Part shown: positions 39,261-63,154 of the stretch, in pieces
How the letters are laid out: the number at the start of each line of letters is the position of its first letter
Position numbering within the stretch: position 1 is the stretch's first letter
Source: Escherichia phage BP32
Direction: 5' to 3' (one strand)
Length of the DNA stretch: 64,000 bases
Sequence record: OR906198.1
Made by a program: the position numbers and the translations under genes
Notes under the pieces: generated by a model
The model's database searches: none
What the model saw: the letters and a program-made list of their open reading frames with translations, nothing else
What the model was told of the DNA's origin: nothing

Positions 39261-40688
39261 GTGGTAGAAATTATTCTTTCTCATCTCATATTTGATCAAG
39301 CTTATTTTTCAAAAGTTTGGCCATATATGGATTCAGAATATTTTGAAAGTGGTCCAGCTAAAAATACATTCAAATTAATTAAATCTCATGTTAATGAGTA
39401 CCATAGCGTTCCATCTATTAATGCGTTAAATGTTGCATTAGAAAATAGTTCATTTACTGAAACAGAATATTCTGGTGTAAAAACACTTATTTCAAAACTA
39501 ACCGATTCTCCGGAAGACCACAGCTGGTTAGTAAAAGAAACAGAAAAATATGTTCAGCAAAGGGCGATGTTTAATGCTACGTCTAAAATAATTGAAATTC
39601 AAACTAATGCTGAGCTTCCTCCGGAAAAACGAAATAAGAAAATGCCAGATGTAGGTGCTATTCCTGACATCATGCGCCAAGCATTATCAATTTCATTTGA
39701 TAGCTACGTTGGTCATGATTGGATGGATGACTACGAAGCACGTTGGCTATCTTATATGAATAAAGCTCGTAAGGTTCCATTTAAACTCAAAATTCTAAAT
39801 AAAATTACTAAAGGCGGAGCTGAAACTGGAACACTGAACGTTTTAATGGCTGGTGTTAACGTCGGTAAGTCATTAGGTCTGTGTTCATTAGCAGCAGATT
39901 ATTTGCAGCTCGGACATAATGTTCTTTACATTTCCATGGAAATGGCAGAAGAAGTTTGTGCTAAGCGTATTGATGCTAATATGCTTGATGTTTCTCTTGA
40001 TGACATTGATGATGGGCATATTTCTTACGCTGAATATAAAGGAAAAATGGAAAAATGGCGTGAGAAATCTACTCTTGGACGTTTAATCGTTAAACAGTAT
40101 CCTACTGGTGGAGCAGACGCTAATACATTTCGGTCGCTTTTAAATGAATTAAAGCTCAAGAAGAATTTTGTTCCAACAATCATTATTGTTGACTATCTAG
40201 GTATTTGTAAATCTTGCCGCATCAGAGTTTATTCAGAAAATAGTTACACAACTGTTAAAGCTATCGCAGAAGAATTACGTGCTCTGGCTGTTGAAACCGA
40301 AACTGTTCTTTGGACTGCAGCACAGGTTGGTAAACAAGCTTGGGATTCTTCTGATGTTAACATGAGCGATATTGCAGAATCTGCCGGTCTTCCAGCAACA
40401 GCCGATTTTATGCTTGCGGTCATTGAAACCGAGGAGTTAGCAGCTGCTGAACAACAACTCATTAAGCAAATCAAATCACGATATGGTGATAAGAATAAAT
40501 GGAATAAGTTTTTGATGGGTGTTCAAAAAGGAAATCAGAAATGGGTAGAAATTGAACAAGATTCTACTCCAACTGAAGTGAACGAAGTGGCAGGTTCACA
40601 GCAGATTCAAGCTGAGCAGAATCGCTATCAAAGAAACGAATCCGCTCGAGCTCAGTTAGATGCTTTGGCAAATGAATTAAAATTTTAG
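39261..40688 (+). CDS. 41: replicative DNA helicase (DnaB-like)
   Basis: 475 aa; Walker A GVNVGKS; GTG start; sequence recognised. Confidence 0.97.
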   Translation: MVEIILSHLIFDQAYFSKVWPYMDSEYFESGPAKNTFKLIKSHVNEYHSVPSINALNVALENSSFTETEYSGVKTLISKLTDSPEDHSWLVKETEKYVQQRAMFNATSKIIEIQTNAELPPEKRNKKMPDVGAIPDIMRQALSISFDSYVGHDWMDDYEARWLSYMNKARKVPFKLKILNKITKGGAETGTLNVLMAGVNVGKSLGLCSLAADYLQLGHNVLYISMEMAEEVCAKRIDANMLDVSLDDIDDGHISYAEYKGKMEKWREKSTLGRLIVKQYPTGGADANTFRSLLNELKLKKNFVPTIIIVDYLGICKSCRIRVYSENSYTTVKAIAEELRALAVETETVLWTAAQVGKQAWDSSDVNMSDIAESAGLPATADFMLAVIETEELAAAEQQLIKQIKSRYGDKNKWNKFLMGVQKGNQKWVEIEQDSTPTEVNEVAGSQQIQAEQNRYQRNESARAQLDALANELKF

Positions 40689-40717
40689 TTTACAAGCTGA
40701 CAAGACTATGGTATAGT
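40688..40717 (+). promoter_or_regulatory. T4-type early promoter with inverted repeat around the -10
   Basis: gtttacaagctgacaagactatggtatagtagtcttg; caagact/agtcttg inverted repeat. Confidence 0.65.
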
Positions 40718-40747
40718 AGTCTTGTTGGTTAAATTGGGGAAATTATT

Positions 40748-40939
40748 ATGGAATTAGCAAAGATTGTTTTTATTGGCTGGTTTGAAAATGGTAATATGTT
40801 TACCAAAGAAATCACTATGGATGTGTCTGATAAAGATCAAATTCTATGGGTCACTTCACAACTTGCTGAAGTTAATAAAGCTTTAGTTAAAGCATTTGTT
40901 AATGATAAAAAAGTTTTTGAATCTGATTGGCGAGGGTAA
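40748..40939 (+). CDS. small early protein, Dmd-like by position and size (candidate antitoxin against RnlA/LsoA-type toxins)
   Basis: 63 aa, first ORF downstream of gene 41 with its own early promoter; identity not verified. Confidence 0.4.
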   Translation: MELAKIVFIGWFENGNMFTKEITMDVSDKDQILWVTSQLAEVNKALVKAFVNDKKVFESDWRG

Positions 40940-40940
40940 T

Positions 40941-41183
40941 ATGCATACGGTTTTATTTAAACCTACTCCGTATAATGTTAGGAAAAATACTCAATTCAAA
41001 GCACTTGTTGCAGATACGTGGGAATTGGTGTTAGATATTCCAGCAGAAGAAAGTCCTCCATTTGGTCGAGTGGAATTTATTAAGTTTGCTGTGCGCCCTA
41101 CGAAGCGACAGATTCGTCAATGCAAAAGATACTTTCGTAAAATCGTCAAGTTAGAGAAACAGTTATTGATGCTAGTAAAATAG
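40941..41183 (+). CDS. hypothetical basic protein (80 aa)
   Basis: GAGGGTAA RBS. Confidence 0.5.
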   Translation: MHTVLFKPTPYNVRKNTQFKALVADTWELVLDIPAEESPPFGRVEFIKFAVRPTKRQIRQCKRYFRKIVKLEKQLLMLVK

Positions 41184-41185
41184 TA

Positions 41186-41215
41186 GTTTACAAGCTGATA
41201 GAGTTGTGTTATAGT
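41186..41215 (+). promoter_or_regulatory. T4-type early promoter with 10 bp inverted repeat
   Basis: gtttac...tatagt; agctgataga ... tctatcagct. Confidence 0.65.
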
Positions 41216-41246
41216 AATTCTATCAGCTAATCGCGGAGAAAAGAAA

Positions 41247-41501
41247 ATGATGCTAGTTAATAGAGAATATCAGTTTAAATCAGAAGAAGATTTGGAAAAA
41301 TTCGCAAGTGGTTGTGAACTGAATAGACGCACAGCTAAAGTCATAGGATTAAAACCCTTTACAGTTCTAGATTGTGAAGTTTCTAAATTCCGCAGAGGGT
41401 GTTCTATTAGCGGTCATGCTCTGGTTGATGGGAACACATTTTTCTTTGTTTTTAGCGTCAGAGAACTTTTATTGATTAACGAACTTGAGGAAATAAAATA
41501 G
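41247..41501 (+). CDS. hypothetical protein (84 aa)
   Basis: GGAGAAAA RBS. Confidence 0.55.
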   Translation: MMLVNREYQFKSEEDLEKFASGCELNRRTAKVIGLKPFTVLDCEVSKFRRGCSISGHALVDGNTFFFVFSVRELLLINELEEIK

Positions 41502-41558
41502 TTTACTTTTGTTGGAAATTGAGATACTATATAAACATAAACTACTGAGGAGATTATC

Positions 41559-41852
41559 ATGAAAAAATTTGTTTTTGCTGCAATTTTTGCTTTGGCTTCT
41601 TGTACTGCTCAGCCTGCTATGGCGGGTTATGATAAAGATTTGTGCGAATGGTCTATGACTGCAGATCAGACTGAGGTTGAAACTCAGATTGAAGCAGATA
41701 TTATGAATATCGTTGAGCGTGATCGCCCTGAAATGAAAGCTGAAGTACAAAAACAGCTTAAGTCTGGTGGTGTAATGCAGTATAATTACGTTTTGTATTG
41801 CGATAAAAACTTCAATAATAAAAATATCATCGCTGAAGTGGTAGGTGAATAA
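41559..41852 (+). CDS. sp: periplasmic protein Spackle (inhibits tail lysozyme; superinfection exclusion)
   Basis: 97 aa with signal peptide; sequence and size match my recollection of T4 Sp. Confidence 0.75.
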   Translation: MKKFVFAAIFALASCTAQPAMAGYDKDLCEWSMTADQTEVETQIEADIMNIVERDRPEMKAEVQKQLKSGGVMQYNYVLYCDKNFNNKNIIAEVVGE

Positions 41853-41864
41853 TTAGAGGTTAAT

Positions 41865-42029
41865 ATGAAAACATATAAAGAATTTATCAAAGAAGATATG
41901 GTCGCTGGAGATTCAGGTGGTAATCCTGAAAATATCTCTACTGGAACAACATCAGGTGCTGTAGTAAATAAAGGCCCTGAACAGATTCCTAAAAAGAAAA
42001 AAGAGGAATCTAAAGAAAAAGAAGAGTAA
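41865..42029 (+). CDS. hypothetical small protein (54 aa)
   Basis: AGAGG RBS; Lys/Glu-rich tail. Confidence 0.4.
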   Translation: MKTYKEFIKEDMVAGDSGGNPENISTGTTSGAVVNKGPEQIPKKKKEESKEKEE

Positions 42030-42031
42030 AA

Positions 42032-43060
42032 ATGTCATCAATACCTTGGATTGATAATGAGTTTGCATATCGTGCATTAGCTCATTTACCTAAATTCACA
42101 CAAGTAAATAATAGTTCAACTTTTAAATTACGGTTTAGATGCCCTGTTTGTGGAGATTCAAAAACCGACCAAAATAAAGCCCGTGGATGGTATTACGGTG
42201 ATAATAATGAAGGAAATATTCATTGTTATAACTGCAACTATCATGCACCAATCGGAATATATTTAAAGGAGTTTGAACCCGATTTATATCGTGAGTATAT
42301 CTTTGAAATAAGAAAAGAAAAAGGTAAAAGTCGTCCAGTAGAAAAACCTAAAGAACTTCCTAAACAACCTGAGAAGAAAATAATTAAATCTCTTCCGTCA
42401 TGCATTAGATTAGATAAACTGGCGGAAGACCATCCAATTATAAAATACGTAAAAGCTCGCTGTATTCCAAAGGATAAATGGAAATATCTTTGGTTTACAA
42501 CCGAATGGCCTAAATTAGTTAATAGCATAGCACCAGGAACATACAAAAAGGAAATACCTGAGTCTCGTCTTGTTATTCCAATTTATAATGCTAATGGAAA
42601 AGCCGAGTCTTTTCAAGGACGTGCATTAAAGAAAGATGCTCCTCAAAAATATATCACCATCAAAGCTTATCCTGAGGCAACAAAAATCTATGGAGTTGAA
42701 CGAGTTAAAGATGGTGATGTATATGTTCTAGAAGGACCTATAGATTCACTTTTTATTGAAAATGGTATAGCTATTACAGGTGGTCAATTAGACCTAGAAA
42801 TTGTTCCATTTAAAGATAGACGTGTATGGGTTTTAGATAATGAACCTCGTCACCCTGATACTATTAAACGAATGACTAAATTAGTTGATGCAGGAGAAAG
42901 GGTTATGTTTTGGGATAAATCTCCCTGGAAATCAAAAGATGTTAATGATATGATTAGAAAGGAAGGTGCAACCCCTGAACAAATTATGGAATATATGAAA
43001 AATAATATTGCCCAAGGGTTGATGGCTAAAATGCGGCTATCTAAATATGCTAAGATTTAA
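42032..43060 (+). CDS. 61: DNA primase
   Basis: 342 aa; zinc-binding motif CPVCGDSK; Toprim-like region. Confidence 0.93.
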   Translation: MSSIPWIDNEFAYRALAHLPKFTQVNNSSTFKLRFRCPVCGDSKTDQNKARGWYYGDNNEGNIHCYNCNYHAPIGIYLKEFEPDLYREYIFEIRKEKGKSRPVEKPKELPKQPEKKIIKSLPSCIRLDKLAEDHPIIKYVKARCIPKDKWKYLWFTTEWPKLVNSIAPGTYKKEIPESRLVIPIYNANGKAESFQGRALKKDAPQKYITIKAYPEATKIYGVERVKDGDVYVLEGPIDSLFIENGIAITGGQLDLEIVPFKDRRVWVLDNEPRHPDTIKRMTKLVDAGERVMFWDKSPWKSKDVNDMIRKEGATPEQIMEYMKNNIAQGLMAKMRLSKYAKI

Positions 43061-43257
43061 ATTAACCCAACTAAAGCAAATGCTAAATCTACGAATGTAT
43101 CAAGAGTAATTACTGGAATACTAACGCCATGAGCAATAGCAACTGGCGATAAAACAAAATTCCAAAGTAAAATTCCTATCATAGCAGAAATAGTAAAAGC
43201 TATACGTTTTTTATTACCTTTGATGGCATTAACAAGTGCCATTAATTTTTGTACCAT
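43057..43257 (-). CDS. small membrane protein on the opposite strand (66 aa, 2 TM)
   Basis: only minus-strand ORF lying in an intergenic gap; AAGGAGG RBS 8 nt upstream; ATAAATA late-promoter-like element upstream. Confidence 0.5.
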   Translation of the reverse strand: MVQKLMALVNAIKGNKKRIAFTISAMIGILLWNFVLSPVAIAHGVSIPVITLDTFVDLAFALVGLI

Positions 43258-43306
43258 GCGTCGTCCTCCTTTAAATTAAATATTTATCGCAAATTTTACA
43301 AAATTT

Positions 43307-43336
43307 GTTTACTTTCTCAGCTTGTTGTGGTATTAT
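43307..43336 (+). promoter_or_regulatory. T4-type early promoter
   Basis: gtttactttctcagcttgttgtggtattat. Confidence 0.65.
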
Positions 43337-43361
43337 AAAATAAACTGCTGAGGATAATATA

Positions 43362-44701
<1,340 letters not shown>

Positions 44702-44702
44702 C

Positions 44703-44725
44703 TGCTTATATTCAAATGATATAAT
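44703..44725 (+). promoter_or_regulatory. candidate middle promoter (MotA box TGCTT plus -10 TATAAT)
   Basis: ctgcttata then 12 bp then tataat upstream of gene 56. Confidence 0.4.
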
Positions 44726-44759
44726 TATTTAACTTATTAATGAATTGAAAGGAAAAATA

Positions 44760-45278
44760 ATGGCTTACTTTAATGAATGTTCACAACTGATTGAAGGCGC
44801 TGATAAAGCTCAAAACGAATACTGGGATATTCTCGGTGATGAAAAAGACCCGCTGCAGGTTATGCTTGATATGCAGAAATCTTTACAGGTTCGTTTAGCT
44901 AAAGATAAACCTGAATATAACCGTCATCCTGATGATTTGGCTACTGCTGGTGAAGTTGTTGATTGGCTACGTAATCAGAAAGATTATATTGACGATGAAT
45001 TCCGTGAACTTCTGACATCTCTTGGCGGTATGAGCAATGGCGAAAAAGATGCATCTGCTGTATGGAAGCCTTGGAAAGCTCAACACGGTGAACGCCGCGA
45101 AACTCTAATTACTGATTTGTCTCCACAAGACCAGTTGGAAATTAAATTCGAAATGATTGATATTCTTCATTTCGTTCTGAACATGTTCCAAGGTCTTGGT
45201 CTTACGGCTGAAGAAATCTTTAAACTTTATTATCTGAAAAATGCTGAAAACTTCGCTCGTCAAGACCGAGGTTATTAA
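44760..45278 (+). CDS. 56: dCTP pyrophosphatase (dCTPase/dUTPase)
   Basis: sequence recognised; AAGGAAA RBS before ATG 44760. Confidence 0.93.
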   Translation: MAYFNECSQLIEGADKAQNEYWDILGDEKDPLQVMLDMQKSLQVRLAKDKPEYNRHPDDLATAGEVVDWLRNQKDYIDDEFRELLTSLGGMSNGEKDASAVWKPWKAQHGERRETLITDLSPQDQLEIKFEMIDILHFVLNMFQGLGLTAEEIFKLYYLKNAENFARQDRGY

Positions 45279-45322
45279 TAGCTCGTTTATTTAAACGACG
45301 ACTTAAAAGCCGTGAGAATTAT

Positions 45323-45330
45323 TATAAATA
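45323..45330 (+). promoter_or_regulatory. late promoter TATAAATA
   Basis: exact consensus about 30 nt upstream of soc. Confidence 0.6.
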
Positions 45331-45360
45331 ATCATGTAATTTAAATAAAAGGAGAATTAC

Positions 45361-45606
45361 ATGGCTAGTACTCGCGGTTATGTTAATATCAAAACATTTG
45401 AGCAGAAATTAGATGGAAATAAGAAAATTGAAGGAAAGGAAATTTCAGTAGCTTTCCCTCTTTATTCTGACGTTCACAAAATTTCTGGCGCTCATTACCA
45501 GACATTCCCTTCAGAAAAAGCAGCATATACTACTGTATATGAAGAAAATCAGCGTACTGAATGGATTGCTGCAAACGAAGATTTGTGGAAAGTAACTGGC
45601 GGTTAA
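45361..45606 (+). CDS. soc: small outer capsid protein
   Basis: 81 aa; sequence recognised. Confidence 0.93.
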   Translation: MASTRGYVNIKTFEQKLDGNKKIEGKEISVAFPLYSDVHKISGAHYQTFPSEKAAYTTVYEENQRTEWIAANEDLWKVTGG

Positions 45607-45614
45607 TAATTCAA

Positions 45615-45638
45615 GGACTTCTTCGGGAGTCCTTTTTT
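45615..45638 (+). terminator. rho-independent terminator
   Basis: ggacttc-ttcg-ggagtcc followed by T6. Confidence 0.8.
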
Positions 45639-45648
45639 CATTTAAACG

Positions 45649-45678
45649 GTTTACTTTCCAAAATGAGTATGGTATAAT
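45649..45678 (+). promoter_or_regulatory. T4-type early promoter
   Basis: gtttactttccaaaatgagtatggtataat. Confidence 0.7.
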
Positions 45679-45704
45679 AGAATTATCTTATAGAGGAGAG
45701 CGCT

Positions 45705-45911
45705 ATGTTAAATCGTTGGATTAAACCAAATGAAGATTTAGATATTATCATTTCACGACATGTAATGAAGAAATATGAACTACAGCCATGGTCTACAGAA
45801 GTTGTTGTGCATTCATTTATGATGTACGCAGATGGTTCTGTCGAATTTAACGCAGAGATTCGATATGATTATGGTGAGAAGCAAGTTGAATTCAAGAGAG
45901 GCTTTTTGTAA
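45705..45911 (+). CDS. hypothetical protein (68 aa)
   Basis: AGAGGAGAG RBS. Confidence 0.55.
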   Translation: MLNRWIKPNEDLDIIISRHVMKKYELQPWSTEVVVHSFMMYADGSVEFNAEIRYDYGEKQVEFKRGFL

Positions 45912-46252
45912 TGTTTATCTTTAATTGGTTTAAAAATTTCTTTACAGATTTTTTCTCTACAGCTCCTGGAGAAGGTGTAGTTCCTATTTCAAACGACTAC
46001 CTTCCTTTAACTGTAGTTGAATATGTTTATATGGGAGATGGAACAGTAGAAGCAGTTACTATGACTTATGAAGAAGCCCAAGAATATTATAAAAATCCTT
46101 GGCGCTGGTCAACACCTACTACATCATCTAATACACAGAATACACAGTCTAGTTCTGATTCATATGACACTAATGTTCCTGTTCATGTATGGACGGGCGA
46201 TTCGTGTGGAAGTTCTTGTGATTCTAGTTGTTCATCTACATCTTGTGATTGA
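45911..46252 (+). CDS. hypothetical protein with Cys/Ser/Asp-rich C-terminal tail
   Basis: 113 aa ending [18 protein letters not shown]. Confidence 0.5.
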
Positions 46253-46260
46253 GGAAAATT

Positions 46261-46746
46261 ATGGAAGCGATTTTGTTTGAAATGTATATTAGCAGTAATA
46301 GCATGTCGTTTGCTAAAGATGTTCCAATTACCGTAGCAGTAATGATTGATAAAAGATATGATAATAGCATGTATCTAGTAGAAGATTTTATTTCAATGCC
46401 AGTTCCAGAAGATGTTGAAATAAAACTTAAAAAGATCGGAATTATTGAAACTGTACGAAATTCTCCATTTATGTCAATTCAAGCATTTACTAAATCTAAC
46501 TATATTGATGTTGCTGAAGCATATTATAACAATAAACCGCTGCCATTATATTCATATGATTCAATATATGACTGGAAAATAGATAAGGGAAATAAATTTA
46601 TAATTACGGAAGAAAATGCGCTATCATATTTTATTACTTCTTTATGGAATAATTTAAATCCAAATTTGCTAAAAATTCATAAATTTGATGATGCTCCTAC
46701 TGTTGTTTTAGGTAAAATAAATGAAAGTTCTGAAGAAAATGTTTGA
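46261..46746 (+). CDS. hypothetical protein (161 aa)
   Basis: GAGGAAAA RBS. Confidence 0.55.
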
Positions 46747-46924
46747 ATGGTTCAGTAGACCAAACTCAATGTACATTGATGATGGTTGGGTTGAACAAGC
46801 AAATAAAGAAATGCAGAACGAATCGGAAGAATGGATGAAATCAATGATTAGTGCTGAGAAAGAAAAGAAATTAGAACGCTCAGCTCTTAAATTGATGAGA
46901 GACATCTATGGGGATAAATCATGA
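46721..46924 (+). CDS. hypothetical protein (67 aa)
   Basis: ORF track. Confidence 0.4.
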
Positions 46925-47085
46925 ACAGAGATATGACGTTAGAAGAGGCCAAGGCTAAAGCAAATGAAGCATTGGATTTGCTTCTTAAAATTGGCAGTAA
47001 AATGATGGAAGAAAATGAGAAATATATCCAGGAAAACAAAATTCTTGACGGTCCATTAGTAGGCAAAAGGAAATCACATGATTGA
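46921..47085 (+). CDS. hypothetical small protein (54 aa)
   Basis: ATGA overlap; GGGGA RBS. Confidence 0.4.
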
Positions 47086-47548
47086 AGTAGCAAAACATTA
47101 TTCAATAGAATTTATGTCTAAAGAAGGTAAATCAGTAAATACGCTTGACAAAAAGTGCTCATTAATTATTCCTTTGGCAGAAAATCCGGATATTTTAATT
47201 AAAGATATAAAAGAAAGAAAATATCCAGAAAATGTTATCCTAATTATAAAGCATACTGAAGATATTTTGCAGAATACTGATTCACCATTTTCTTCTTCTG
47301 AGGCTTTAACTATCAAAGGCTATAAAAGAGCTCATGAATATGGTCTTTTTAGCCTGTTTGAAGATGATAAGGTTAAATTAGCGAGTCAACCTTTTAAAAG
47401 TAAAACATTCATTATTGAAGATATTAAAGATATAAATGCATTTGTTAAGATGGTCTGGGCTCATTTTGATGTTGGACTACGCTGGAGAATGTCCGAAGAA
47501 GAAAGAAAGACTATTGAAACTAATCGTTATTTTGGTTTTTATCGCTAG
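47078..47548 (+). CDS. hypothetical protein (156 aa)
   Basis: AAGGAAA RBS. Confidence 0.55.
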
Positions 47549-47556
47549 GAATTAAT

Positions 47557-47739
47557 ATGGATTTATTTGAGATGTTAGAAGATAATCATTCTACGAATAT
47601 CCAGAATGATTCTAGTGATTATAAGAAAGAATACCGTATAGTATTACAGAATTATGGAATTGAAGCCCCAGATGCTCTTCTAGAAGAACTAGCTTCATAC
47701 CATCTTGACCCTCCGCCCTGGGCTCCCTGGGCAAAATAA
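47557..47739 (+). CDS. hypothetical acidic protein (60 aa)
   Basis: AGGA RBS. Confidence 0.5.
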   Translation: MDLFEMLEDNHSTNIQNDSSDYKKEYRIVLQNYGIEAPDALLEELASYHLDPPPWAPWAK

Positions 47740-47750
47740 TTCAAAAAGTT

Positions 47751-47780
47751 GTTTACTTTCCTTTCTAACGATGATATGAT
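47751..47780 (+). promoter_or_regulatory. T4-type early promoter
   Basis: gtttactttcctttctaacgatgatatgat. Confidence 0.55.
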
Positions 47781-47806
47781 AGCTTCTGAAGTATATGGAG
47801 GCTATC

Positions 47807-48430
47807 ATGATTATTAATCTTGCAGATGTTGAACAGTTATCTATAAAAGCTGAAAGCGTTGATTTTCAATATGATATGTATAAAAAGGTCTGTGAAAAAT
47901 TTACTGACTTTGAACAGTCAGTTCTTTGGCAATGTATGGAAGCCAAAAAGAATGAAGCTCTTCACCGGCAATTGAATAAAATCGTTAAAAAGCATTTAAC
48001 TAAATCACCTTATCAGCTATATCGTGGTATATCAAAATCGACAAAAGAGCTCATTAAAGATTTACAAGTCGGAGAAGTGTTTTCAACGAACAGAGTAGAT
48101 TCATTTACTACTAGTTTGCACACAGCATGTGGTTTTTCTTATGTTGAGTATTTCACTGAAATAATATTTCGCTTAAAAACTGATAAAGCTTTTAATTATT
48201 CTGACCATATCAGCGATATTATACTTTCTTCTCCTAATACTGAGTTTAAGTATACATATGAAGATACTGATGGATTAGATTCAGAACGTACTGATAACTT
48301 AATGATGATTGTGCGTGAACAAGAATGGATGATTCCAATTGGAAAGTATAAAATAACTTCTATTTCAAAAGAAAAATTACACGATTCATTTGGAACATTT
48401 AAAGTGTATGATATTGAGGTAGTTGAATGA
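47807..48430 (+). CDS. modB: ADP-ribosyltransferase (R-S-ExE type)
   Basis: 207 aa from ATG 47807 (GGAGG RBS); motifs R (LYRG), STS-like (FTTSLH), ExE (REQEWMIP). Confidence 0.75.
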   Translation: MIINLADVEQLSIKAESVDFQYDMYKKVCEKFTDFEQSVLWQCMEAKKNEALHRQLNKIVKKHLTKSPYQLYRGISKSTKELIKDLQVGEVFSTNRVDSFTTSLHTACGFSYVEYFTEIIFRLKTDKAFNYSDHISDIILSSPNTEFKYTYEDTDGLDSERTDNLMMIVREQEWMIPIGKYKITSISKEKLHDSFGTFKVYDIEVVE

Positions 48431-49029
48431 AATATTCAGCAATGCAATTAAAAGATTTTAAAATCAAATCAATGGATGCATCGGTGCGTGCTTCTATTCG
48501 TGAAGAATTACTTTCTGAAGGATTTAATTTATCTGAAATTGAACTTTTAATTCATTGTATTACTAATAAGCCAGACGATCATTCTTGGTTAAATGAAATA
48601 ATCAAATCTCGTTTGGTTCCAAACGATAAACCTCTTTGGAGAGGTGTTCCAGTTGAGACTAAGCAGGTGTTAAATCAAGGAATTGATATTATTACATTTG
48701 ATAAAGTAGTATCAGCTTCATATGATAAAAATATAGCTCTACATTTTGCTTCTGGATTAGAATACAACACACAAGTTATTTTTGAATTCAAAGCTCCTAT
48801 GGTATTTAATTTCCAGGAGTATGCTATAAAAGCTCTACGTTGTAAAGAATATAGTCCAAGTTTTAAGTTTCCAGATAGCCATCGCTATCGTAATATGGAA
48901 TTAGTTTCAGATGAACAAGAAGTAATGATACCAGCTGGAAGTGTATTTAGAATTGCGGATAGATATGAGTATAAAAAGTATTCAACATACACTATCTATA
49001 CTCTTGACTTTGAAGGATTTAATCTATAA
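48427..49029 (+). CDS. modA: ADP-ribosyltransferase (R-S-ExE type)
   Basis: 200 aa paralog of the preceding gene; motifs LWRG, SASY, DEQEVMIP. Confidence 0.75.
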   Translation: MKYSAMQLKDFKIKSMDASVRASIREELLSEGFNLSEIELLIHCITNKPDDHSWLNEIIKSRLVPNDKPLWRGVPVETKQVLNQGIDIITFDKVVSASYDKNIALHFASGLEYNTQVIFEFKAPMVFNFQEYAIKALRCKEYSPSFKFPDSHRYRNMELVSDEQEVMIPAGSVFRIADRYEYKKYSTYTIYTLDFEGFNL

Positions 49030-49084
49030 TGGAAGGACTTAGATTCATTATACCATGAAAGTTTTAAAGCATTTTCATAAAGTT

Positions 49085-49114
49085 GTTTACAAGCTGAAGT
49101 AAAAATGATATAGT
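49085..49114 (+). promoter_or_regulatory. T4-type early promoter
   Basis: gtttacaagctgaagtaaaaatgatatagt. Confidence 0.65.
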
Positions 49115-49144
49115 ATAAGTAGTTAACCCGTCCGTGAGAAAAAT

Positions 49145-49891
49145 ATGAAACTGACTAATAATCAAATTCGTAAAATTAAACGTCGTCTAGAGCATACTCA
49201 GGCATCTGCTAAAAGACGTTCTAAAGATTTTAACTTAGACTTTAATTACATTAAAAATATTTTAGATCAGAAAGTTTGCGCTTACTCGGGAGAACCTTTT
49301 GATAATCGTATTGAAGGAGAGAAATTATCATTAGAACGTTTTGATAATAACGTTGGATACATTAAAGGGAATGTTATTGCAGTAAAGAAAAAGTATAATA
49401 CATTTCGTTCTGATTATACTTTAGAAGAGTTGATTGAAAAGCGTGATTTATTTGCTTTGCGAATTGGTCGTTCATCTGCGAAAAAAGTTCATAAACTAAA
49501 TTTAGATGAAAAGAAATGGGCTAAAATCAAAAAGACTTATAATCAAATTAAATCTATACAGAAAAAACGTGAAAACCGAATTGAGCACATTTCTCAGCTT
49601 TCTAAATCAAAACAAACTTCTGACGTTAAGCTAACGATTATAGCACTTAAAGCTCGTATTGATGGTTCTCGTATAGCAGAAGGTGCTGAAGTTGTTAAAT
49701 TGAACGTTCTTCTTAAAGGCTCGGATTGGAAAACTGTGAAAAAGTTGTCAGAAGCAGAAATGCAATATGATATGTGTGATAAAATTATTCAAGGTATAGA
49801 GCGGTATCAAAACTTGTCTTTTATTGATAAACTTAAACTGAAAAGAGGATACCCGCTAAATTGTTCAATTTTTAAACTTATCCGAGGATAA
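49145..49891 (+). CDS. hypothetical basic protein (248 aa), Srd position
   Basis: position between modA and dda; identity not verified. Confidence 0.5.
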   Translation: MKLTNNQIRKIKRRLEHTQASAKRRSKDFNLDFNYIKNILDQKVCAYSGEPFDNRIEGEKLSLERFDNNVGYIKGNVIAVKKKYNTFRSDYTLEELIEKRDLFALRIGRSSAKKVHKLNLDEKKWAKIKKTYNQIKSIQKKRENRIEHISQLSKSKQTSDVKLTIIALKARIDGSRIAEGAEVVKLNVLLKGSDWKTVKKLSEAEMQYDMCDKIIQGIERYQNLSFIDKLKLKRGYPLNCSIFKLIRG

Positions 49892-49892
49892 T

Positions 49893-50204
49893 ATGTTTTA
49901 TGTATATGCGATAGTGTATAGAGATAAAGATGGATTTGCGGTGCCTGTTCCTCTTGATGAACATCGCCCTGCTGTATTTTTTGAAAGGGAGATTGCTGAT
50001 AAAGTATTTACAACTCTTAAAGAGCAGTATCAACTAGCTTTAGGTATGGGAATTCCGAGATTAGTTGAGACTCCACGTAAGTTTTGGTTTAATAAAATAG
50101 AAGTTAAACATGTTAAGCCTGATGTAGACACACAAAGATTATATCGGCGAATTTTAGATACTGGGCGTATTGTTAGTATACCAATTGCAGGGAATTTACG
50201 ATGA
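49893..50204 (+). CDS. hypothetical protein (dda.1 position, 103 aa)
   Basis: ORF track; directly upstream of dda. Confidence 0.55.
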   Translation: MFYVYAIVYRDKDGFAVPVPLDEHRPAVFFEREIADKVFTTLKEQYQLALGMGIPRLVETPRKFWFNKIEVKHVKPDVDTQRLYRRILDTGRIVSIPIAGNLR

Positions 50205-51520
50205 CATTTGATGATTTGACCGAAGGCCAGAAAAATGCCTTTAACATTGTTATGAGGGCTATTAAAGAAAAGAAACACCATGTAACTATTAATGGACCTG
50301 CTGGTACTGGTAAGACTACTCTTACTAAGTTCATCATTGAAGCTTTAATATCTACAGGCGAAACTGGAATTATTTTAGCAGCTCCTACACATGCAGCTAA
50401 AAAGATTCTTTCAAAACTATCGGGGAAAGAAGCGAGTACTATTCACAGTATTCTCAAAATTAACCCAGTAACATACGAAGAAAACGTTCTTTTTGAACAA
50501 AAAGAAGTACCGGATTTAGCTAAATGCAGGGTATTAATCTGCGACGAAGTGTCAATGTATGATAGAAAGCTATTTAAAATTCTGCTTTCAACTATCCCGC
50601 CGTGGTGTACTATAATTGGAATAGGCGATAATAAGCAAATTAGACCTGTTGACCCAGGAGAAAACACTGCTTATATCAGTCCGTTCTTTACGCACAAAGA
50701 CTTTTATCAGTGTGAACTCACCGAAGTTAAACGCAGTAATGCTCCTATTATTGATGTAGCTACTGATGTTCGTAACGGTAAGTGGATTTATGATAAAATT
50801 ATTGATGGGCATGGAGTACGTGGATTTACTGGTGATACCGCTTTACGCGATTTTATGGTAAATTATTTTTCAATCGTAAAATCACTAGATGATTTGTTTG
50901 AAAATCGTGTAATGGCATTTACGAATAAATCTGTTGATAAGTTGAATAGCATTATTCGCAAAAAGATTTTTGAAACCGATAAAGATTTTATCGTTGGTGA
51001 AATTATTGTAATGCAGGAACCATTAATTAAAACATATAAAATTGATGGAAAGCCTGTGTCAGAAATTATTTTTAATAACGGACAATTAGTTCGTATTATA
51101 GAAGCAGAGTATACATCAACATTTGTTAAAGCTCGTGGTGTTCCTGGAGAATATCTAATTCGTCATTGGGATTTAACAGTAGAAACTTACGGCGATGATG
51201 AATATTATCGTGAAAAGATTAAAATAATTTCATCTGATGAAGAGCTGTATAAGTTTAACTTATTTTTAGGTAAAACGGCAGAAACTTATAAAAATTGGAA
51301 TAAAGGCGGAAAAGCTCCGTGGAGCGATTTTTGGGATGCTAAATCACAGTTTAGTAAAGTGAAAGCACTTCCTGCGTCAACATTCCATAAAGCTCAGGGC
51401 ATGTCTGTAGATCGTGCTTTCATCTATACACCTTGTATTCATTATGCAGATGCTGAACTAGCACAGCAGCTTCTTTATGTTGGTGTAACACGTGGTCGTT
51501 ATGATGTGTTTTATGTATGA
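50201..51520 (+). CDS. dda: SF1 DNA helicase Dda
   Basis: 439 aa; Walker A GPAGTGKTT; Walker B ICDEVSM. Confidence 0.93.
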   Translation: MTFDDLTEGQKNAFNIVMRAIKEKKHHVTINGPAGTGKTTLTKFIIEALISTGETGIILAAPTHAAKKILSKLSGKEASTIHSILKINPVTYEENVLFEQKEVPDLAKCRVLICDEVSMYDRKLFKILLSTIPPWCTIIGIGDNKQIRPVDPGENTAYISPFFTHKDFYQCELTEVKRSNAPIIDVATDVRNGKWIYDKIIDGHGVRGFTGDTALRDFMVNYFSIVKSLDDLFENRVMAFTNKSVDKLNSIIRKKIFETDKDFIVGEIIVMQEPLIKTYKIDGKPVSEIIFNNGQLVRIIEAEYTSTFVKARGVPGEYLIRHWDLTVETYGDDEYYREKIKIISSDEELYKFNLFLGKTAETYKNWNKGGKAPWSDFWDAKSQFSKVKALPASTFHKAQGMSVDRAFIYTPCIHYADAELAQQLLYVGVTRGRYDVFYV

Positions 51521-51526
51521 TTAAAT

Positions 51527-51787
51527 TTGAGGAAGCTATTCGTGGAAATAACTAAAGACCAGTTTTATCTACTTCAAGATAAAGTGAGCGAAATATATGA
51601 AATAGCTTATAGTAAAAATCGCAAAAACGTGAAAATTGAATCAGGCAAGTTAATGCTTCAATTGGAAGAAATCGAACGAGATTTGATTGCGTTAGAATTC
51701 TTTTGCGGTGAAGTGAAAACTGTCACAATCAGTGATTATGTTTTAGGTGAAATTAGCCATCTTTATAAGGCGATTATTAATGATTGA
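51527..51787 (+). CDS. hypothetical protein (86 aa), paralog of next ORF
   Basis: similar LEEI..D...F motif to the downstream ORF. Confidence 0.5.
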   Translation: MRKLFVEITKDQFYLLQDKVSEIYEIAYSKNRKNVKIESGKLMLQLEEIERDLIALEFFCGEVKTVTISDYVLGEISHLYKAIIND

Positions 51788-52022
51788 ATTAAGTTTACAT
51801 CAGTTTAAATCTCTTATGACAAATGTTAAAGCTGTCATTGAGGAAAATCCAGGACCTGATAATGTTACTATTCGCGAAAAAGCTTCAAAGATAGTATACA
51901 GTCTTGAAGAGATACAAAAAGATATTGAATCTATGGCAAAATTTATTGATGAGCCCATTAATAAAGTTTATATCCAAGATTATACTGTAGGTCAAATTCG
52001 CGATTTAGCAAGGAAAATTTAA
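51780..52022 (+). CDS. hypothetical protein (80 aa), paralog of previous ORF
   Basis: AAGG RBS before ATG 51780. Confidence 0.5.
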   Translation: MIELSLHQFKSLMTNVKAVIEENPGPDNVTIREKASKIVYSLEEIQKDIESMAKFIDEPINKVYIQDYTVGQIRDLARKI

Positions 52023-52705
52023 TGTTTGATTTTATTATAGATTTTGAAACAATGGGAAGTGGTGAAAAGGCAGCTGTTATTGATTTGGCTGTTATTGCCT
52101 TTGACCCTAATCCAGAAGTAGTTGAAACATTCGATGAATTAGTTTCGCGCGGCATTAAAATCAAATTTGATTTAAAAAGTCAAAAAGGACATCGTCTTTT
52201 TACTAAAAGCACTATCGAATGGTGGAAAAATCAGTCTCCTGAAGCTCGAAAAAATATTGCACCGTCAGATGAAGATGTAAGCACTATCGATGGTATTGTA
52301 AAATTTAATGATTACATCAATGCACATAACATCGATCCTTGGAAATCTCAAGGCTGGTGCCGTGGAATGTCGTTTGATTTTCCAATTTTAGTCGATCTCA
52401 TTCGCGATATTCAACGTCTTAATGGCGTTTCTGAGAATGAACTTGACACATTTAAGTTAGAACCGTGTAAATTCTGGAATCAGCGTGATATTCGTACCAG
52501 AATTGAAGCACTTCTCCTTGTTCGTGATATGACCACGTGTCCTCTTCCAAAAGGAACTTTAGATGGATTCGTTGCACATGATTCTATTCATGACTGTGCG
52601 AAAGACATCCTGATGATGAAGTATGCTTTGCGATATGCTATGGGTCTTGAAGATGCTCCGTCAGAGGAAGAGTGCGATCCTCTATCTCTTCCAACAAAAC
52701 GATAA
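52022..52705 (+). CDS. dexA: exonuclease A (DnaQ-like 3-5 exonuclease)
   Basis: 227 aa; DFET motif; sequence recognised. Confidence 0.9.
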   Translation: MFDFIIDFETMGSGEKAAVIDLAVIAFDPNPEVVETFDELVSRGIKIKFDLKSQKGHRLFTKSTIEWWKNQSPEARKNIAPSDEDVSTIDGIVKFNDYINAHNIDPWKSQGWCRGMSFDFPILVDLIRDIQRLNGVSENELDTFKLEPCKFWNQRDIRTRIEALLLVRDMTTCPLPKGTLDGFVAHDSIHDCAKDILMMKYALRYAMGLEDAPSEEECDPLSLPTKR

Positions 52706-52711
52706 AAAGTT

Positions 52712-52741
52712 GTTTACTTCCTCGGTTAGTTGTGGTATTAT
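52712..52741 (+). promoter_or_regulatory. T4-type early promoter
   Basis: gtttacttcctcggttagttgtggtattat. Confidence 0.7.
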
Positions 52742-52768
52742 AACACCATAGCTACTGAGGATAATAAA

Positions 52769-53269
52769 ATGAAAATTTATCGTGTTGAATCATCTTTTAG
52801 TATTCTTAATTGTGAAGATGCTATAACAATACGTCGAAATCTTTGTGTTCAAATAACGCCATACAGGAGTATAATAGATTCATGGAGCGAAGAGTGGTTA
52901 TTACACGTAGGTTATGACAGACCTAATTTTATGCATCATAGCGATGATAATAAAAGAATTCCTTTACCACACGAAGATAAACTATTAGTTAAAAACGCTA
53001 ATATAGTAATTAATACTAAGTTCAAGAAAGATTATGTTGGAGTAGAATATCATATTCCAGGATGGTTTATAGCTCTTTATCATTTTGCTTTCGCTAGTGA
53101 ATATGATATGATGAGATGGTTCACACGAGAAGAGCGGGAAGAATTATCTTCTAAAGGATTTTATCTCGCTGTATACGAAGTTTCTGAAGATGAAGTTATC
53201 ATTGGCGGGCACCAAGTAATGTTCCGCAAATCGCATGCTGAACTCATAGATTTTATTGAAATGAGATAA
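52769..53269 (+). CDS. hypothetical protein (166 aa; motB.2 position)
   Basis: GAGGA RBS. Confidence 0.55.
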   Translation: MKIYRVESSFSILNCEDAITIRRNLCVQITPYRSIIDSWSEEWLLHVGYDRPNFMHHSDDNKRIPLPHEDKLLVKNANIVINTKFKKDYVGVEYHIPGWFIALYHFAFASEYDMMRWFTREEREELSSKGFYLAVYEVSEDEVIIGGHQVMFRKSHAELIDFIEMR

Positions 53270-53271
53270 TT

Positions 53272-53814
53272 ATGAAATTTAATTATAATCCTGAATACAT
53301 ACCAAATCCGGTAGCTAAACTGATTGATTTTGATGTTGTAAGCACTTATGTATGCCCTGTTAAACCACTGGAAATTAAGGAACCTACTATGACTACCGCT
53401 ATTGAAATCGGCAAAACCTACAAACTGGTTGAACCTGAAATTAAAACTAATGCCTTGATTTCCGGCCATAAAACTCTGACTGATGTTTTTGGCGAAGGCG
53501 AATTTACTGTTGAAGACTTTGAAAAAAGTAAATGGTTTACTAAATCTTATATTGTACACGGTCGTCGTTTAGACAATAACAAAATAGAGAAAATCCTGGT
53601 TTATGAAGCAGAGTTCATCCTGTTCCAAGAAGTTGAAGAACAAGACCCTACAGACCTTCTAACTCGTGCGGTAGCTATCAAGACTCCATTTATTTCAGTC
53701 TGTGGTTGGGTAACAGACCAGTGGATTGAAGATGGTGTTGAACTTCTGAACGTTGTTCATGCAGGTGATTTTAGTGTAGTACCTCGTAGTGCGGTGGTAG
53801 CTATTTTGAATTAA
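53272..53814 (+). CDS. MotB-like paralog (180 aa)
   Basis: C-terminal VTDQWIEDGVELLNVV resembles ITDQWVEDGVKLYNVV of the next gene. Confidence 0.55.
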   Translation: MKFNYNPEYIPNPVAKLIDFDVVSTYVCPVKPLEIKEPTMTTAIEIGKTYKLVEPEIKTNALISGHKTLTDVFGEGEFTVEDFEKSKWFTKSYIVHGRRLDNNKIEKILVYEAEFILFQEVEEQDPTDLLTRAVAIKTPFISVCGWVTDQWIEDGVELLNVVHAGDFSVVPRSAVVAILN

Positions 53815-53816
53815 TA

Positions 53817-53846
53817 GTTTACAAACTCTTGGGACCAGAGTATAAT
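53817..53846 (+). promoter_or_regulatory. T4-type early promoter with inverted repeat around the -10
   Basis: gtttac...tataat; ggacc/ggtcc flank the -10. Confidence 0.65.
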
Positions 53847-53890
53847 GGTCCTGTGGAGTATAAAATCTTTTTAACAAGTGAGAGATAACT

Positions 53891-54379
53891 ATGATTATTA
53901 ATATTGGTGAAATTGCTCGTGTATCTGATAAATCCCGTTCTAAAGCAGCAGGAAAATTGGTTGAAATTGTAAGCATTCAGCTTAAACGTGGTGTTAAAGA
54001 CGAAGATTCTGAAGTAAAAGTGCGTATCATTCCTAAAGATGGAAAGTCTAAACCTCAGTTTGGCTATGTTCGTGCGAAATTTCTTGAATCTGCGTTTTTG
54101 AAAGCTGTTCCTGCTAAAGGAATTGAAACGATTGATACTTCGCATGTAGGTGTAGACTTTAAGTGGAAACTCGGTCAGGCTATTAAGTTCATTGCTCCCT
54201 GTGAATTTAAATTTATCAAAGATGATGGTGTGGCTGTTTATACTCGCGCTATGTGCGCATACATTACCGATCAGTGGGTAGAAGACGGTGTTAAGCTGTA
54301 TAATGTGGTATTTTTAGGAACATACAAAGTCATTCCTGAAAGCTGGATTAAACACTATAGCAAAGCTCTCTATGCATAA
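53891..54379 (+). CDS. motB: MotB (modifier of transcription)
   Basis: 162 aa as recalled for T4 MotB; position between dexA and the gene 39 region. Confidence 0.6.
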   Translation: MIINIGEIARVSDKSRSKAAGKLVEIVSIQLKRGVKDEDSEVKVRIIPKDGKSKPQFGYVRAKFLESAFLKAVPAKGIETIDTSHVGVDFKWKLGQAIKFIAPCEFKFIKDDGVAVYTRAMCAYITDQWVEDGVKLYNVVFLGTYKVIPESWIKHYSKALYA

Positions 54380-54404
54380 AGTTTAAAATTTTTTCATAAA
54401 ACTA

Positions 54405-54433
54405 TATACATCAGTAGTTGATTATGGTACTAT
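54405..54433 (+). promoter_or_regulatory. early-promoter-like element inside an 11 bp perfect inverted repeat
   Basis: cagtagttgat-tatggtactatatcaat-atcaactactg; -35 is the variant TATACA. Confidence 0.5.
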
Positions 54434-54476
54434 ATCAATATCAACTACTGATACAGAAAACAACTTGGAGAATAAA

Positions 54477-54746: not shown

Positions 54747-54759
54747 TGAGGAAATTGTA

Positions 54760-58099: not shown

Positions 58100-58128
58100 T
58101 TTACTTTACCACAAGGATGTGGTATAAT
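58099..58128 (+). promoter_or_regulatory. T4-type early promoter
   Basis: gtttactttaccacaaggatgtggtataat; one mismatch from the copy at 12896. Confidence 0.7.
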
Positions 58129-63127: not shown

Positions 63128-63154
63128 TACCCTATCAACTACGGAGGAACAGAA

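Follow-up and report, generated by a model that had tools for sequence, protein, structure and literature searches.

The inverted repeats that bracket the -10 hexamers of early promoters in Escherichia phage BP32 are real and occur far above chance expectation. They are an already known feature of T4-type phages, which carry promoter-early stem-loop (PeSL) cassettes (Arbiol et al. 2010, PMC2839356; Comeau et al. 2014, PMC4122927), with a forerunner in Repoila et al. 1994, as cited in the PeSL papers (PMC2839356; PMC4122927). The repeats probably represent the stem-loop half of such cassettes, the object under selection being a hairpin in the sense-strand RNA that forms only in read-through RNA. 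The 5' arm of this hairpin would lie in the spacer between -35 and -10, and its 3' arm past the -10; because the embedded promoter's own transcripts lack the 5' arm, the hairpin would be confined to RNA reading in from the upstream gene. Embedding of this kind would be found where promoter and preceding stop codon are fused, leaving no intergenic space for a structure of its own, and the hairpin would punctuate and insulate adjacent early expression units. The original prediction had offered three options for the repeats, namely operator sites for a dimeric repressor, cruciforms and RNA structures; RNA structure is the best supported of these, and the other two are not supported.

Early promoters and their stem-loops

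The stretch analysed here (the window, 64,000 nucleotides) belongs to a T4-like coliphage with ~98% identity to phage 132, IME340 and RB3. It contains 21 sites of the type GTTTAC-N18-TAnnnT, most of them with TGG preceding the -10, which are taken as promoters by consensus prediction, with a start site assumed ~7 nt past the -10. An ATG follows 25-44 nt past the -10 at all 21 promoters, and the 20 nt 5' of the -35 have a mean A+T content of 78%, compared to 65.6% for the whole window. Depending on the class, a stem-loop is present in or beside ~10-13 of the 21 promoters; about half of the promoters lack such a structure, including one (41501) that abuts an upstream stop. All five repeats that had been predicted are present, each flanking the -10 hexamer of a T4-type early promoter, with a single correction to the positions: the ctcagc/gctgag repeat, said to start at 43315, was placed one base early, and its true arms are 43316-43321 and 43347-43352. 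The promoters at these repeats follow the T4 early consensus GTTTAC-N18-TAnnnT, except that at 54404, where the -35 is TATACA. When G.U pairs are allowed, most stems exceed the predicted lengths. All features described below lie on the plus strand.

Two classes of hairpin can be distinguished. In class A the hairpin encloses NNNN and the -10 as a 10-nt loop and leaves the Shine-Dalgarno sequence (SD) free; its members are the two focal promoters (40688 and 41186) and those at 5722 and 53817. The dmd early promoter (40688-40717) consists of a -35 GTTTAC (40688-40693), a TGn-type spacer end and a -10 TATAGT (40712-40717), and its -35 is overlapped by the TAG stop of gene 41 (40686-40688). The repeat caagact/agtcttg (40701-40707/40718-40724) is here part of a hairpin at 40697-40728 in which CTGACAAGACT (40697-40707) pairs with AGTCTTGTTGG (40718-40728) over 11 bp, two of them G.U, around the loop ATGG plus TATAGT; the minimum free energy structure lengthens it to 40695-40730. 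The folding energy is -18.9 kcal/mol for the sense strand (z -6.1) and -10.1 for the antisense strand. This promoter serves dmd (63 aa, 40748-40939), as annotated in RB3 and phage 132. The second focal promoter (41186-41215; -35 GTTTAC at 41186-41191, -10 TATAGT at 41210-41215) starts directly behind gene 61.4, the stop of which ends 2 nt upstream of the -35, and serves ORF84 (41247-41501; phrog_2980, E = 3e-20). Its repeat agctgataga/tctatcagct (41193-41202/41219-41228) extends to a hairpin of 13 bp with one G.U pair at 41193-41228, formed by AGCTGATAGAGTT (41193-41205) and AATTCTATCAGCT (41216-41228) around the loop GTGT plus TATAGT (sense -18.0 kcal/mol, z -5.2; antisense -12.6).

Among the other class A promoters, that at 5722-5764 pairs AGTTGGCAAGGTT (5729-5741) with AATCTTGTCAACT (5752-5764) over 13 bp with two G.U pairs. 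At 53817-53859 the repeat ggacc/ggtcc (53832-53836/53847-53851) extends to GGGACC (53831-53836) and GGTCCT (53847-53852), with an outer helix of ACTCT (53825-53829) and GGAGT (53855-53859); the hairpin has an energy of -17.4 kcal/mol in the sense strand (z -3.5) and -13.0 in the antisense strand. The early-type promoter TATACA-N17-TACTAT at 54404-54452 resembles class A, with an offset stem and a loop of 17 nt: its repeat cagtagttgat/atcaactactg (54412-54422/54440-54450) forms a stem of 11-13 bp between CAGTAGTTGAT and ATCAACTACTG at the same positions (sense -20.2 kcal/mol, z -5.6; antisense -18.0).

In class B the 3' arm contains the SD. The gene 56 early promoter and its hairpin (43307-43364) pair TTCTCAGC (43314-43321) in the spacer with GCTGAGGA (43347-43354) over the SD, upstream of the ATG at 43362; with G.U pairs the stem is 8 bp long (sense -12.1 kcal/mol, z -2.6; antisense -8.4). 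Five further members belong here. At 714-773, TCCTCTTGACTG (723-734) in the spacer pairs with CAGTTAAGAGGA (752-763), which holds the SD, before the ATG at 771. At 9916-9976, CTGTTCCTCTGTGG (9926-9939) pairs with CTACGGAGGAACAG (9957-9970), with the SD within and the ATG at 9974, and the same two arms recur at 63098-63157 (ATG 63155). At 52712-52771, the hairpin of motB.2, positions 52719-52736 pair with 52745-52761, which include the SD GAGGA (ATG 52769). The promoter at 47751-47809 is a variant: its 5' arm (47775-47787) begins within the -10, and GGAGG together with the AUG at 47807 lies in the 3' arm (47797-47809).

Excess over chance, covariation and the upstream stop codon

Short inverted repeats are frequent in AT-rich sequence, and the cases of 5-6 bp (53832 and 43316) are singly unremarkable, so that the repeats might be chance palindromes of AT-rich intergenic DNA. 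There is practically nothing to be said for this as an explanation of the whole set, since permutation, shuffle, random-position and slid-register controls alike reject it. A search around the 21 early promoters of the window found an excess, and the supposition that the repeats occur around promoters no more often than in shuffled sequence fails. Duplexes between the spacer and the downstream sequence of the same promoter have a mean energy of -12.2 kcal/mol, compared to -7.5 kcal/mol for non-cognate pairings among the 21 promoters (none of 20000 permutations was as low), and the shuffle z-score of this pairing is -12.5. An energy of -13 kcal/mol or lower is reached by 10 of the 21 promoters but by only 1.4% of 5000 random positions with the same geometry (binomial p = 7e-14). 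In a non-redundant set of 128 early promoters, drawn from diverse T4-like phages, 20% reach the same threshold, as against 2.5% of non-cognate pairings. A single stem in one fixed register over all 128 promoters is only weakly enriched, because the position of the stem differs among the classes, and this test was superseded by the duplex energies and by an unbiased scan of one promoter skeleton. That scan, with GTTTACA-N13-RTGK-TATAGT, gave 115 unique sites, 24 of which have 6-13 contiguous pairs in one fixed register where 2.4 were expected. In this skeleton set 47.2% of the cells are paired, compared to 40.2 +/- 1.1% after shuffling (0 of 500 shuffles), and the covariation score is 0.266 against 0.178 (again 0 of 500), with 0.14-0.20 in slid registers.

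The comparison with T4, which the original prediction had suggested, shows that T4 carries the same repeats. The dmd promoter is identical there (record position 20612), with a G-C pair where the window hairpin has G.U; the T4 ortholog of the promoter at 53817 (position 7215) reads GGTCCC, again changing the window's G.U to G-C, and the structure at 52712 is also found in T4 at 8218. The T4 RefSeq record has no promoter features annotated, and an Rfam search of positions 40000-55000 gave 0 matches at the gathering score. Compensatory changes were counted only among close orthologs, as 'homologs' at 70% identity mixed in paralogous promoters that share leaders, not spacers. Nearly all of the changes are pair-preserving transitions via G.U: 13 are one-sided and pair-preserving, one is a double change and ~3 are breaks at helix ends, small numbers that make this a weak test. 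A variant of the dmd-promoter hairpin (L011/L016) has two changes, both of which keep the pairing, and a query with the Dmd protein found 10 loci, half of which lack the promoter.

The sense strand folds more stably than the antisense strand (Wilcoxon p = 3.5e-4). Base composition does not explain this asymmetry, because it is confined to promoters that abut an upstream stop (sense -14.3 vs antisense -11.3, p = 3e-7; -7.1 vs -6.9 at non-abutting promoters, p = 0.27). The same division governs the pairing itself. Strong pairing is found at 22 of the 56 promoters with the -35 at most 8 nt past the stop of an open reading frame (39%), compared to 4 of the 72 others (5.6%; Fisher p = 3e-6, odds ratio 11), and the fold of the whole region from spacer to AUG has a z-score of -2 or lower at 43 of 58 abutting promoters vs 12 of 70 others (Mann-Whitney p = 6e-11). 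Three promoters of the window that lie behind a canonical early-strand terminator (4910, 8477 and 45649) are without the repeat.

Probable function in read-through RNA and alternative explanations

With the assumed start site, the 5' arm always falls in the spacer or in the -10, and RNA from the promoter itself is thus without the inhibitory arm. As the 3' arm of class B holds the SD, the next gene should be translated from own-promoter RNA and poorly from read-through RNA. Folding predicts such an occlusion: the probability that the SD is unpaired in read-through RNA is 0.00-0.05 at 714, 9916, 43307, 47751, 52712 and 63098, and for own-promoter RNA it rises from 0.00 to 0.35 at 714 and from 0.05 to 0.96 at gene 56. 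The mean is 0.31 in read-through and 0.58 in own-promoter RNA (p = 2e-5), a comparison in which the longer RNA is biased to pairing, and a length-matched control gives modest significance (p = 0.015). Values below 0.2 are found for 9 of 21 promoter-served genes, compared to 13% of 45 control genes without a promoter. At the two focal promoters the SD is not occluded (unpaired probability 0.82 for dmd and 0.74 for ORF84). Since their SD is accessible and their tails are poor in U, class A hairpins are explained neither by translational occlusion nor by canonical intrinsic termination; most likely they would be intercistronic structures that attenuate transcription, mark or stabilise RNA ends, or block re-initiation by ribosomes from the upstream reading frame. 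In both classes the hairpins are expected to form in vivo and may act on transcription, RNA stability or translation.

Different explanations at the level of DNA have to be weighed against this reading. A dyad with the -10 at its centre is the arrangement of a classical operator, and the shut-off of T4 early promoters is reportedly not fully understood (PMC3014915; PMC2988021), which would suit a dimeric phage or host repressor that binds each repeat and silences the early promoter by occupying its -10. Such a role is barely credible here: the arm positions hold ~0-0.6 bit, whereas the -35 holds 1.8 bit and the -10 holds 1.2 bit, there is no common half-site because the arms differ at every promoter, and the loop varies from 10 to 17 nt, so that a fixed spacing is also missing. 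Moreover, the frequent G.U pairs would be mismatches in duplex DNA, pairing is stronger in the sense than in the antisense strand and co-varies instead of conserving a half-site, and about half of the early promoters are without the repeat, whose presence depends on an abutting upstream stop. Nothing supports the proposed link between the repeats and the shut-off of the promoter itself; the hairpin cannot form in that promoter's RNA and tracks the stop that abuts it upstream. A cruciform or hairpin extruded in supercoiled or single-stranded DNA, altering promoter activity, replication or recombination, could draw on repeats of 6-14 bp and on the PeSL stem-loops, which blocked sequencing reactions on single-stranded template and for which recognition by a recombination protein was proposed (PMC2839356). 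G.T pairs are tolerated within one strand, and single-stranded non-template DNA could therefore adopt the fold. Loops of 10-17 nt, however, disfavour cruciform extrusion, and the complementary-strand hairpin, with its A.C mismatches, is 2-9 kcal/mol weaker; on both counts a cruciform is very unlikely, and a role at the level of DNA does not predict the link to upstream stop codons or to the SD.

The PeSL authors themselves read the hairpins as intrinsic terminators or attenuators that halt transcription from upstream. A PeSL stem-loop of phi1/RB49 lowered the expression of a downstream lacZ to the same extent as rrnB T1 (PMC2839356). In line with this, the hairpins of the window are found where a separate terminator is missing, and overlapping promoter-terminator units are reportedly widespread among bacteria (bioRxiv 10.64898/2026.08.19.745784). 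For the window we consider termination unlikely. The T-even-type stems fail the sequence definition of an intrinsic terminator, because they are AT-rich, have loops of 10-17 nt and lead into A-rich tails that lack a U-tract: the 8 nt after class A stems contain a mean of 1.0 T, with at least 5 T in 0 of 24 cases. For lack of a U-tract the dmd and ORF84 hairpins are not canonical terminators either, and a terminator scan of 20 kb, which included the stems at 714, 5722 and 9916, flagged no -10-bracketing stem. In addition, a lacZ reporter cannot tell termination from translational or stability effects, and the SD pairing of class B has no termination rationale. It is quite unlikely, too, that the repeats exist mainly through the shuffling of promoter cassettes by PeSL-mediated modular exchange. 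Mini-circles have been demonstrated for the PeSLs of phi1/RB49 (PMC2839356), and the cassette of promoter and ORF84 (41186-41500) is missing from T4, with its junctions at the -35 sequences of two promoters. But within the promoters it is the stems that are conserved least, and they therefore offer little homology for recombination, the indel at the neighbouring gene 61.2 is not bounded by promoters, and recombination predicts neither sense-strand G.U pairs nor SD pairing nor compensatory change. RNase III sites were rejected because the stems are too short, and sigma-dependent pausing, roadblock termination by promoter-bound polymerase and target presentation to RegB were set aside as making no prediction testable in sequence.

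For the sense-strand hairpin in read-through RNA, the rule that emerges is its presence when an upstream stop abuts the -35, with G.U pairs in the sense strand. In T4-type phages numerous very small early genes follow one another head to tail, every one under a very strong promoter of its own, and promoter-embedded hairpins would explain the independence of adjacent units at no intergenic cost. They would also give a handle on two questions in T4, immediate-early vs read-through expression and the shut-off of early protein synthesis. More speculatively, and less likely than not, the embedded hairpins would be a general insulation device of T4-like phages: at each fusion of an early promoter to the gene before it, the folded read-through RNA would leave the following gene dependent almost exclusively on its own promoter for expression. 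Once the early promoters are off, read-through RNA from middle promoters would then remain untranslated for these genes, which would partly explain the sharp shut-off of early proteins, and class A would contribute likewise via blocked re-initiation or the marking of RNA ends. For annotators, dyad symmetry around the -10 in T4-type phages should not be taken for an operator.

Comparison with known systems

Intercistronic stabilisers of polycistronic mRNA, such as REP-type 3' hairpins or 5' stem-loops giving protection from RNase E, would resemble the window hairpins in having a stable hairpin without a U-tract between two cistrons, but they are not part of a promoter. Promoter-coupled terminators (Fletcher et al., bioRxiv 2026, 10.64898/2026.08.19.745784) are similar in that one compact stretch ends the upstream unit and starts the downstream unit, saving intergenic space. 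In that type the hairpin lies over the -35, a T-tract directly precedes the -10, and the 3' end is located ~10 bp short of the start site, whereas the window hairpins enclose the -10 and have no T-tract.

Closer to class B are the SD-sequestering hairpins with an internal promoter that have been proven for the T4 genes e, soc, 49 and I-TevI (reviewed by Uzan and Miller 2010, PMC3014915). In these genes the long RNA pairs the SD or AUG; transcripts from the promoter, which lies in the 5' half, are without the inhibitory arm and are translated. Class B shows precisely this arrangement. The internal promoters of the T4 genes are late (or middle) and serve temporal control, whereas those of the window are early, and the two focal class A hairpins, unlike the T4 structures, do not touch the SD.

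PeSL cassettes are the nearest relatives. The stems of RB49 and phi1 are hairpins of G/C runs and reported terminators, in contrast to the AT-rich stems of the window with loops of 10-17 nt and no U-tract. According to the published PST legend, the stem-loops lie 'just upstream' of the promoter, a type that the window also contains (4910, 8477 and 45649) and that is distinct from the -10-bracketing type. Neither the SD-pairing class nor the rule of embedding where a stop abuts the -35 was found in the PeSL literature examined. As in PeSLs, the window has an AT-rich tract and a strong (here predicted) sigma70-type early promoter, behind which come an SD and the ATG of a small early gene; the stem-loop lies within the promoter or overlaps it, in one form 'overlapping the -10 box', contains G-T pairs and recurs many times per genome. 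PeSL cassettes are also typically placed in hyperplastic regions and beside indels that separate close relatives; of the two indels seen near the focal promoters, that of the promoter and ORF84 has its junctions at -35 sequences, and that of gene 61.2 does not. The PeSL promoter of the PST/T4 pair is TTTACW-N17-TAYWAT (PMC4122927), and the focal promoters, TTTACA-N17-TATAGT, have one mismatch to TAYWAT. It is plausible that the PST consensus 'AGNA-loop-TCNT' corresponds to the class A stems described here.

Predicted hairpins at the early promoters

The 64-kb window belongs to a T4-like coliphage (genus Tequatrovirus) with its early genes on the + strand, where 21 T4-type early promoters are predicted (bare numbers below name promoters by the start of the -35 element). 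Their layout is an AT-rich tract, GTTTAC, 18 nt mostly ending in TGG, TAnnnT and a Shine-Dalgarno sequence (SD), and the ATG follows 25-44 nt past the -10. The five inverted repeats of the original prediction, at 40688, 41186, 43307, 53817 and 54404, were all found in place, with one start coordinate 1 base off, and each flanks the -10 hexamer in a promoter-like site of this layout. With G.U pairs allowed, the two focal promoters, 40688 (serving dmd) and 41186 (serving ORF84), carry + strand stems of 11 bp (40697-40707/40718-40728) and 13 bp (41193-41205/41216-41228), respectively, both with a 10-nt loop made up of four bases and the -10 hexamer.

Hairpins are distributed bimodally, with strong structure at about half of the window promoters and none at the remainder. 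In class A (5722, 40688, 41186, 53817) the 3' arm directly follows the -10, and four bases separate the end of the 5' arm from the -10; 54404 is class A-like, with an offset stem. In class B (714, 9916, 43307, 52712, 63098) the spacer pairs with the SD of the next gene, and in a variant, 47751, the 5' arm begins within the -10. A third type (12904-12921, 58107-58124 and ~62600-62616; promoters 12896 and 58099 are among the carriers), in which ACCAC of the spacer pairs with GTGGT of the TGn/extended -10, sits entirely within the promoter, and its copy at 12904 was flagged by a terminator scan. The 5' arm lies upstream of the predicted start site in every case, so that, if these starts are correct, the hairpin can form only in RNA entering from upstream, and not in RNA started at the embedded promoter.

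Inverted repeats at the early promoters exceed chance. When the 18-nt spacer of each window promoter was paired with the sequence following its -10, cognate duplexes averaged -12.2 kcal/mol, compared to -7.5 with the downstream regions of other promoters, and 0/20000 permutations were as low. Values of -13 kcal/mol or lower occur at 10/21 promoters and at 1.4% of 5000 random positions of the same geometry (binomial p = 7e-14). Displaced arms give background values only, and the repeats are more frequent at promoters than in shuffled sequence (shuffled arms, z = -12.5). Folded as individual RNAs, the five hairpins of the original prediction reach -18.9, -18.0, -17.4, -20.2 and -12.1 kcal/mol (fold z-scores -6.1 to -2.6).

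Variable arms, retained pairing and strand asymmetry

The arm sequence is not common to the promoters, arm positions holding ~0-0.6 bit vs 1.8 bit for the -35 and 1.2 bit for the -10. Among 128 non-redundant early promoters, taken from diverse T4-like phages (89 loci), stems differ (e.g., GGTGTAGGAG, GGTAGGGCT, GATAAGACT), and 20% reach -13 kcal/mol or lower, compared to 2.5% of non-cognate combinations. An IMG/VR scan for the bare skeleton GTTTACA-N13-RTGK-TATAGT, with the arms unconstrained, yielded 115 unique sites, 24 of which have 6-13 contiguous pairs in a fixed register (2.4 expected), with up to five pair types per position. In the gapless alignment, pairs fill 47.2% of cells (40.2 +/- 1.1 shuffled) and the covariation score is 0.266 (0.178 shuffled), each with 0/500 shuffles reaching it; the score also exceeds that of every slid register. 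The repeat at the dmd promoter is also present in T4, with G-C replacing G.U; the T4 ortholog of 53817 has GGTCCC instead of GGTCCT, and that of 52712 is unchanged. In one relative the 5' arm of the dmd repeat differs by two pair-preserving changes, within close-ortholog variation that is too sparse for a strict compensatory test.

Sense folds at the window promoters are more stable than antisense folds (Wilcoxon p = 3.5e-4), by 2-9 kcal/mol in the five reported hairpins. This advantage is due to G.U pairs, of which the 24 fixed-register stems contain 20; 18 of these stems reach at least 9 bp by the sense rule vs 8 by the antisense rule. Promoters abutting an upstream ORF show the asymmetry (sense -14.3, antisense -11.3, p = 3e-7) and those without an abutting ORF do not (-7.1 and -6.9, p = 0.27), a restriction that rules out base composition as its cause.

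The repeats had been proposed to be operators of a dimeric repressor, cruciforms, or RNA structures for early promoter shut-off. Operators are contradicted by arm sequences and spacing that vary between promoters and by the G.U pairs, and the loop sizes and strand asymmetry make cruciforms unlikely. An RNA structure is supported, one that would act on RNA of the upstream unit rather than in shut-off of the promoter itself.

Judged by sequence, promoters with shared arms or leaders resemble paralogs of a single promoter/leader cassette. The spacer and SD arms at 9916-9976 and 63098-63157, 53 kb apart, are identical, and the leader ACAACTATCAACT after the -10 is common to five promoters, including 8477, 35225 and 62592. 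In one phage lineage (IMG/VR T4-like contigs L091, L102, L106, L126, L128, L139, L183) the leader ACTCCTACAC(C/A)AAC after TATAGT is kept at many promoters; only some spacers are complementary to this leader, so that hairpin formation there depends solely on the 5' arm.

Upstream genes, ribosome binding sites and the dmd locus

The strongest correlate of the hairpin is the upstream gene. Strong pairing is present at 22/56 promoters with the -35 <=8 nt from the preceding ORF stop vs 4/72 others (Fisher p = 3e-6), and spacer-to-AUG folds reach z <= -2 at 43/58 abutting promoters vs 12/70 others (p = 6e-11). In the window, no bracketing repeat was found at 4910, 8477 and 45649, each of which is preceded, 15-30 nt upstream, by a canonical early-strand terminator (4877-4894, 8427-8448, 45613-45634; GC-rich, TTCG tetraloop, T-runs) and a similar, TTTTTCATTT-type linker. 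The association with abutting ORFs thus suggests that structure is put inside the promoter where intergenic room is absent, and that the hairpin has to do with the upstream gene's RNA.

The mean predicted probability of an unpaired SD is 0.31 in read-through RNA vs 0.58 in own-promoter RNA (p = 2e-5), and values below 0.2 occur in 9/21 promoter-served genes vs 13% of 45 promoter-less genes in folds of equal length (p = 0.015). Class B SDs are predicted at 0.00-0.05 in read-through RNA; at the focal promoters the SD is predicted to remain accessible (0.82 and 0.74). The tail after class A stems is A-rich and nearly devoid of U, which places these stems outside the definition of an intrinsic terminator; their function, at both focal promoters included, is one that we infer. 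Downstream of 53817 and separate from its promoter-embedded stem, a second hairpin (53859-53886) pairs the next gene's SD region (unpaired probability 0.00-0.02 in long and short transcripts alike).

The region 40000-42500 is matched by 624 phage records, with 97.6-98.3% identity to phage 132, IME340 and RB3. By RB3, T4 and phage 132 annotation, the focal repeats lie between gene 41 (helicase, end 40688) and gene 61 (primase, 42032-43060), in the order 41, dmd, 61.4, ORF84, sp, 61.1, 61. The ORF84 cassette of promoter and ORF (41186-41501, +) is not present in T4, where gene 61.4 runs directly into the sp promoter, and its junctions lie at the -35 GTTTAC of two promoters. ORF84 (84 aa) matches phrog_2980 'goF mRNA metabolism modulator' (E = 3e-20) and has no Pfam match; its cassette adjoins dmd, also an RNA-metabolism gene. 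Between sp and 61.1 (~41852-41865) the window, like RB3, lacks gene 61.2, which is 627 bp long in T4 and phage 132, and this indel, in contrast to the ORF84 cassette, has no promoters at its borders. Between genes 61 and 56 (43060-43362), where T4 has dam, a middle promoter and oriA, the window has no dam gene but a small ORF on the minus strand (dam.1 in RB3) and, at 43220-43245, a T-run hairpin; the promoter of gene 56 is early-type and carries an SD-pairing hairpin.

Relation to known stem-loops

Promoter-early stem-loops (PeSLs) have been described in phi1/RB49, where a lacZ assay gave terminator-like activity for one stem-loop and the cassettes have a recombination role; AT-rich, weaker analogues on T4 early promoters are also mentioned (Arbiol et al., 2010; PMC2839356). 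A PeSL catalogue exists for PST/T4 (Comeau et al., 2014; PMC4122927). In the accessible papers compared, we found neither a rule tying the hairpin to an abutting stop codon nor a sense-strand asymmetry controlled for composition, nor any figure for how large the SD-pairing class is at early promoters. The geometry of bacterial promoter-coupled terminators (2026 preprint) is unlike that of the window hairpins. In layout, class B corresponds to the T4 hairpins of genes e, soc, 49 and I-TevI, for which occlusion is proven, although the internal promoter is late or middle in those and early in class B (PMC3014915). Given the published PeSLs and T4 occlusion hairpins, the promoter hairpins of the window are an object already known.
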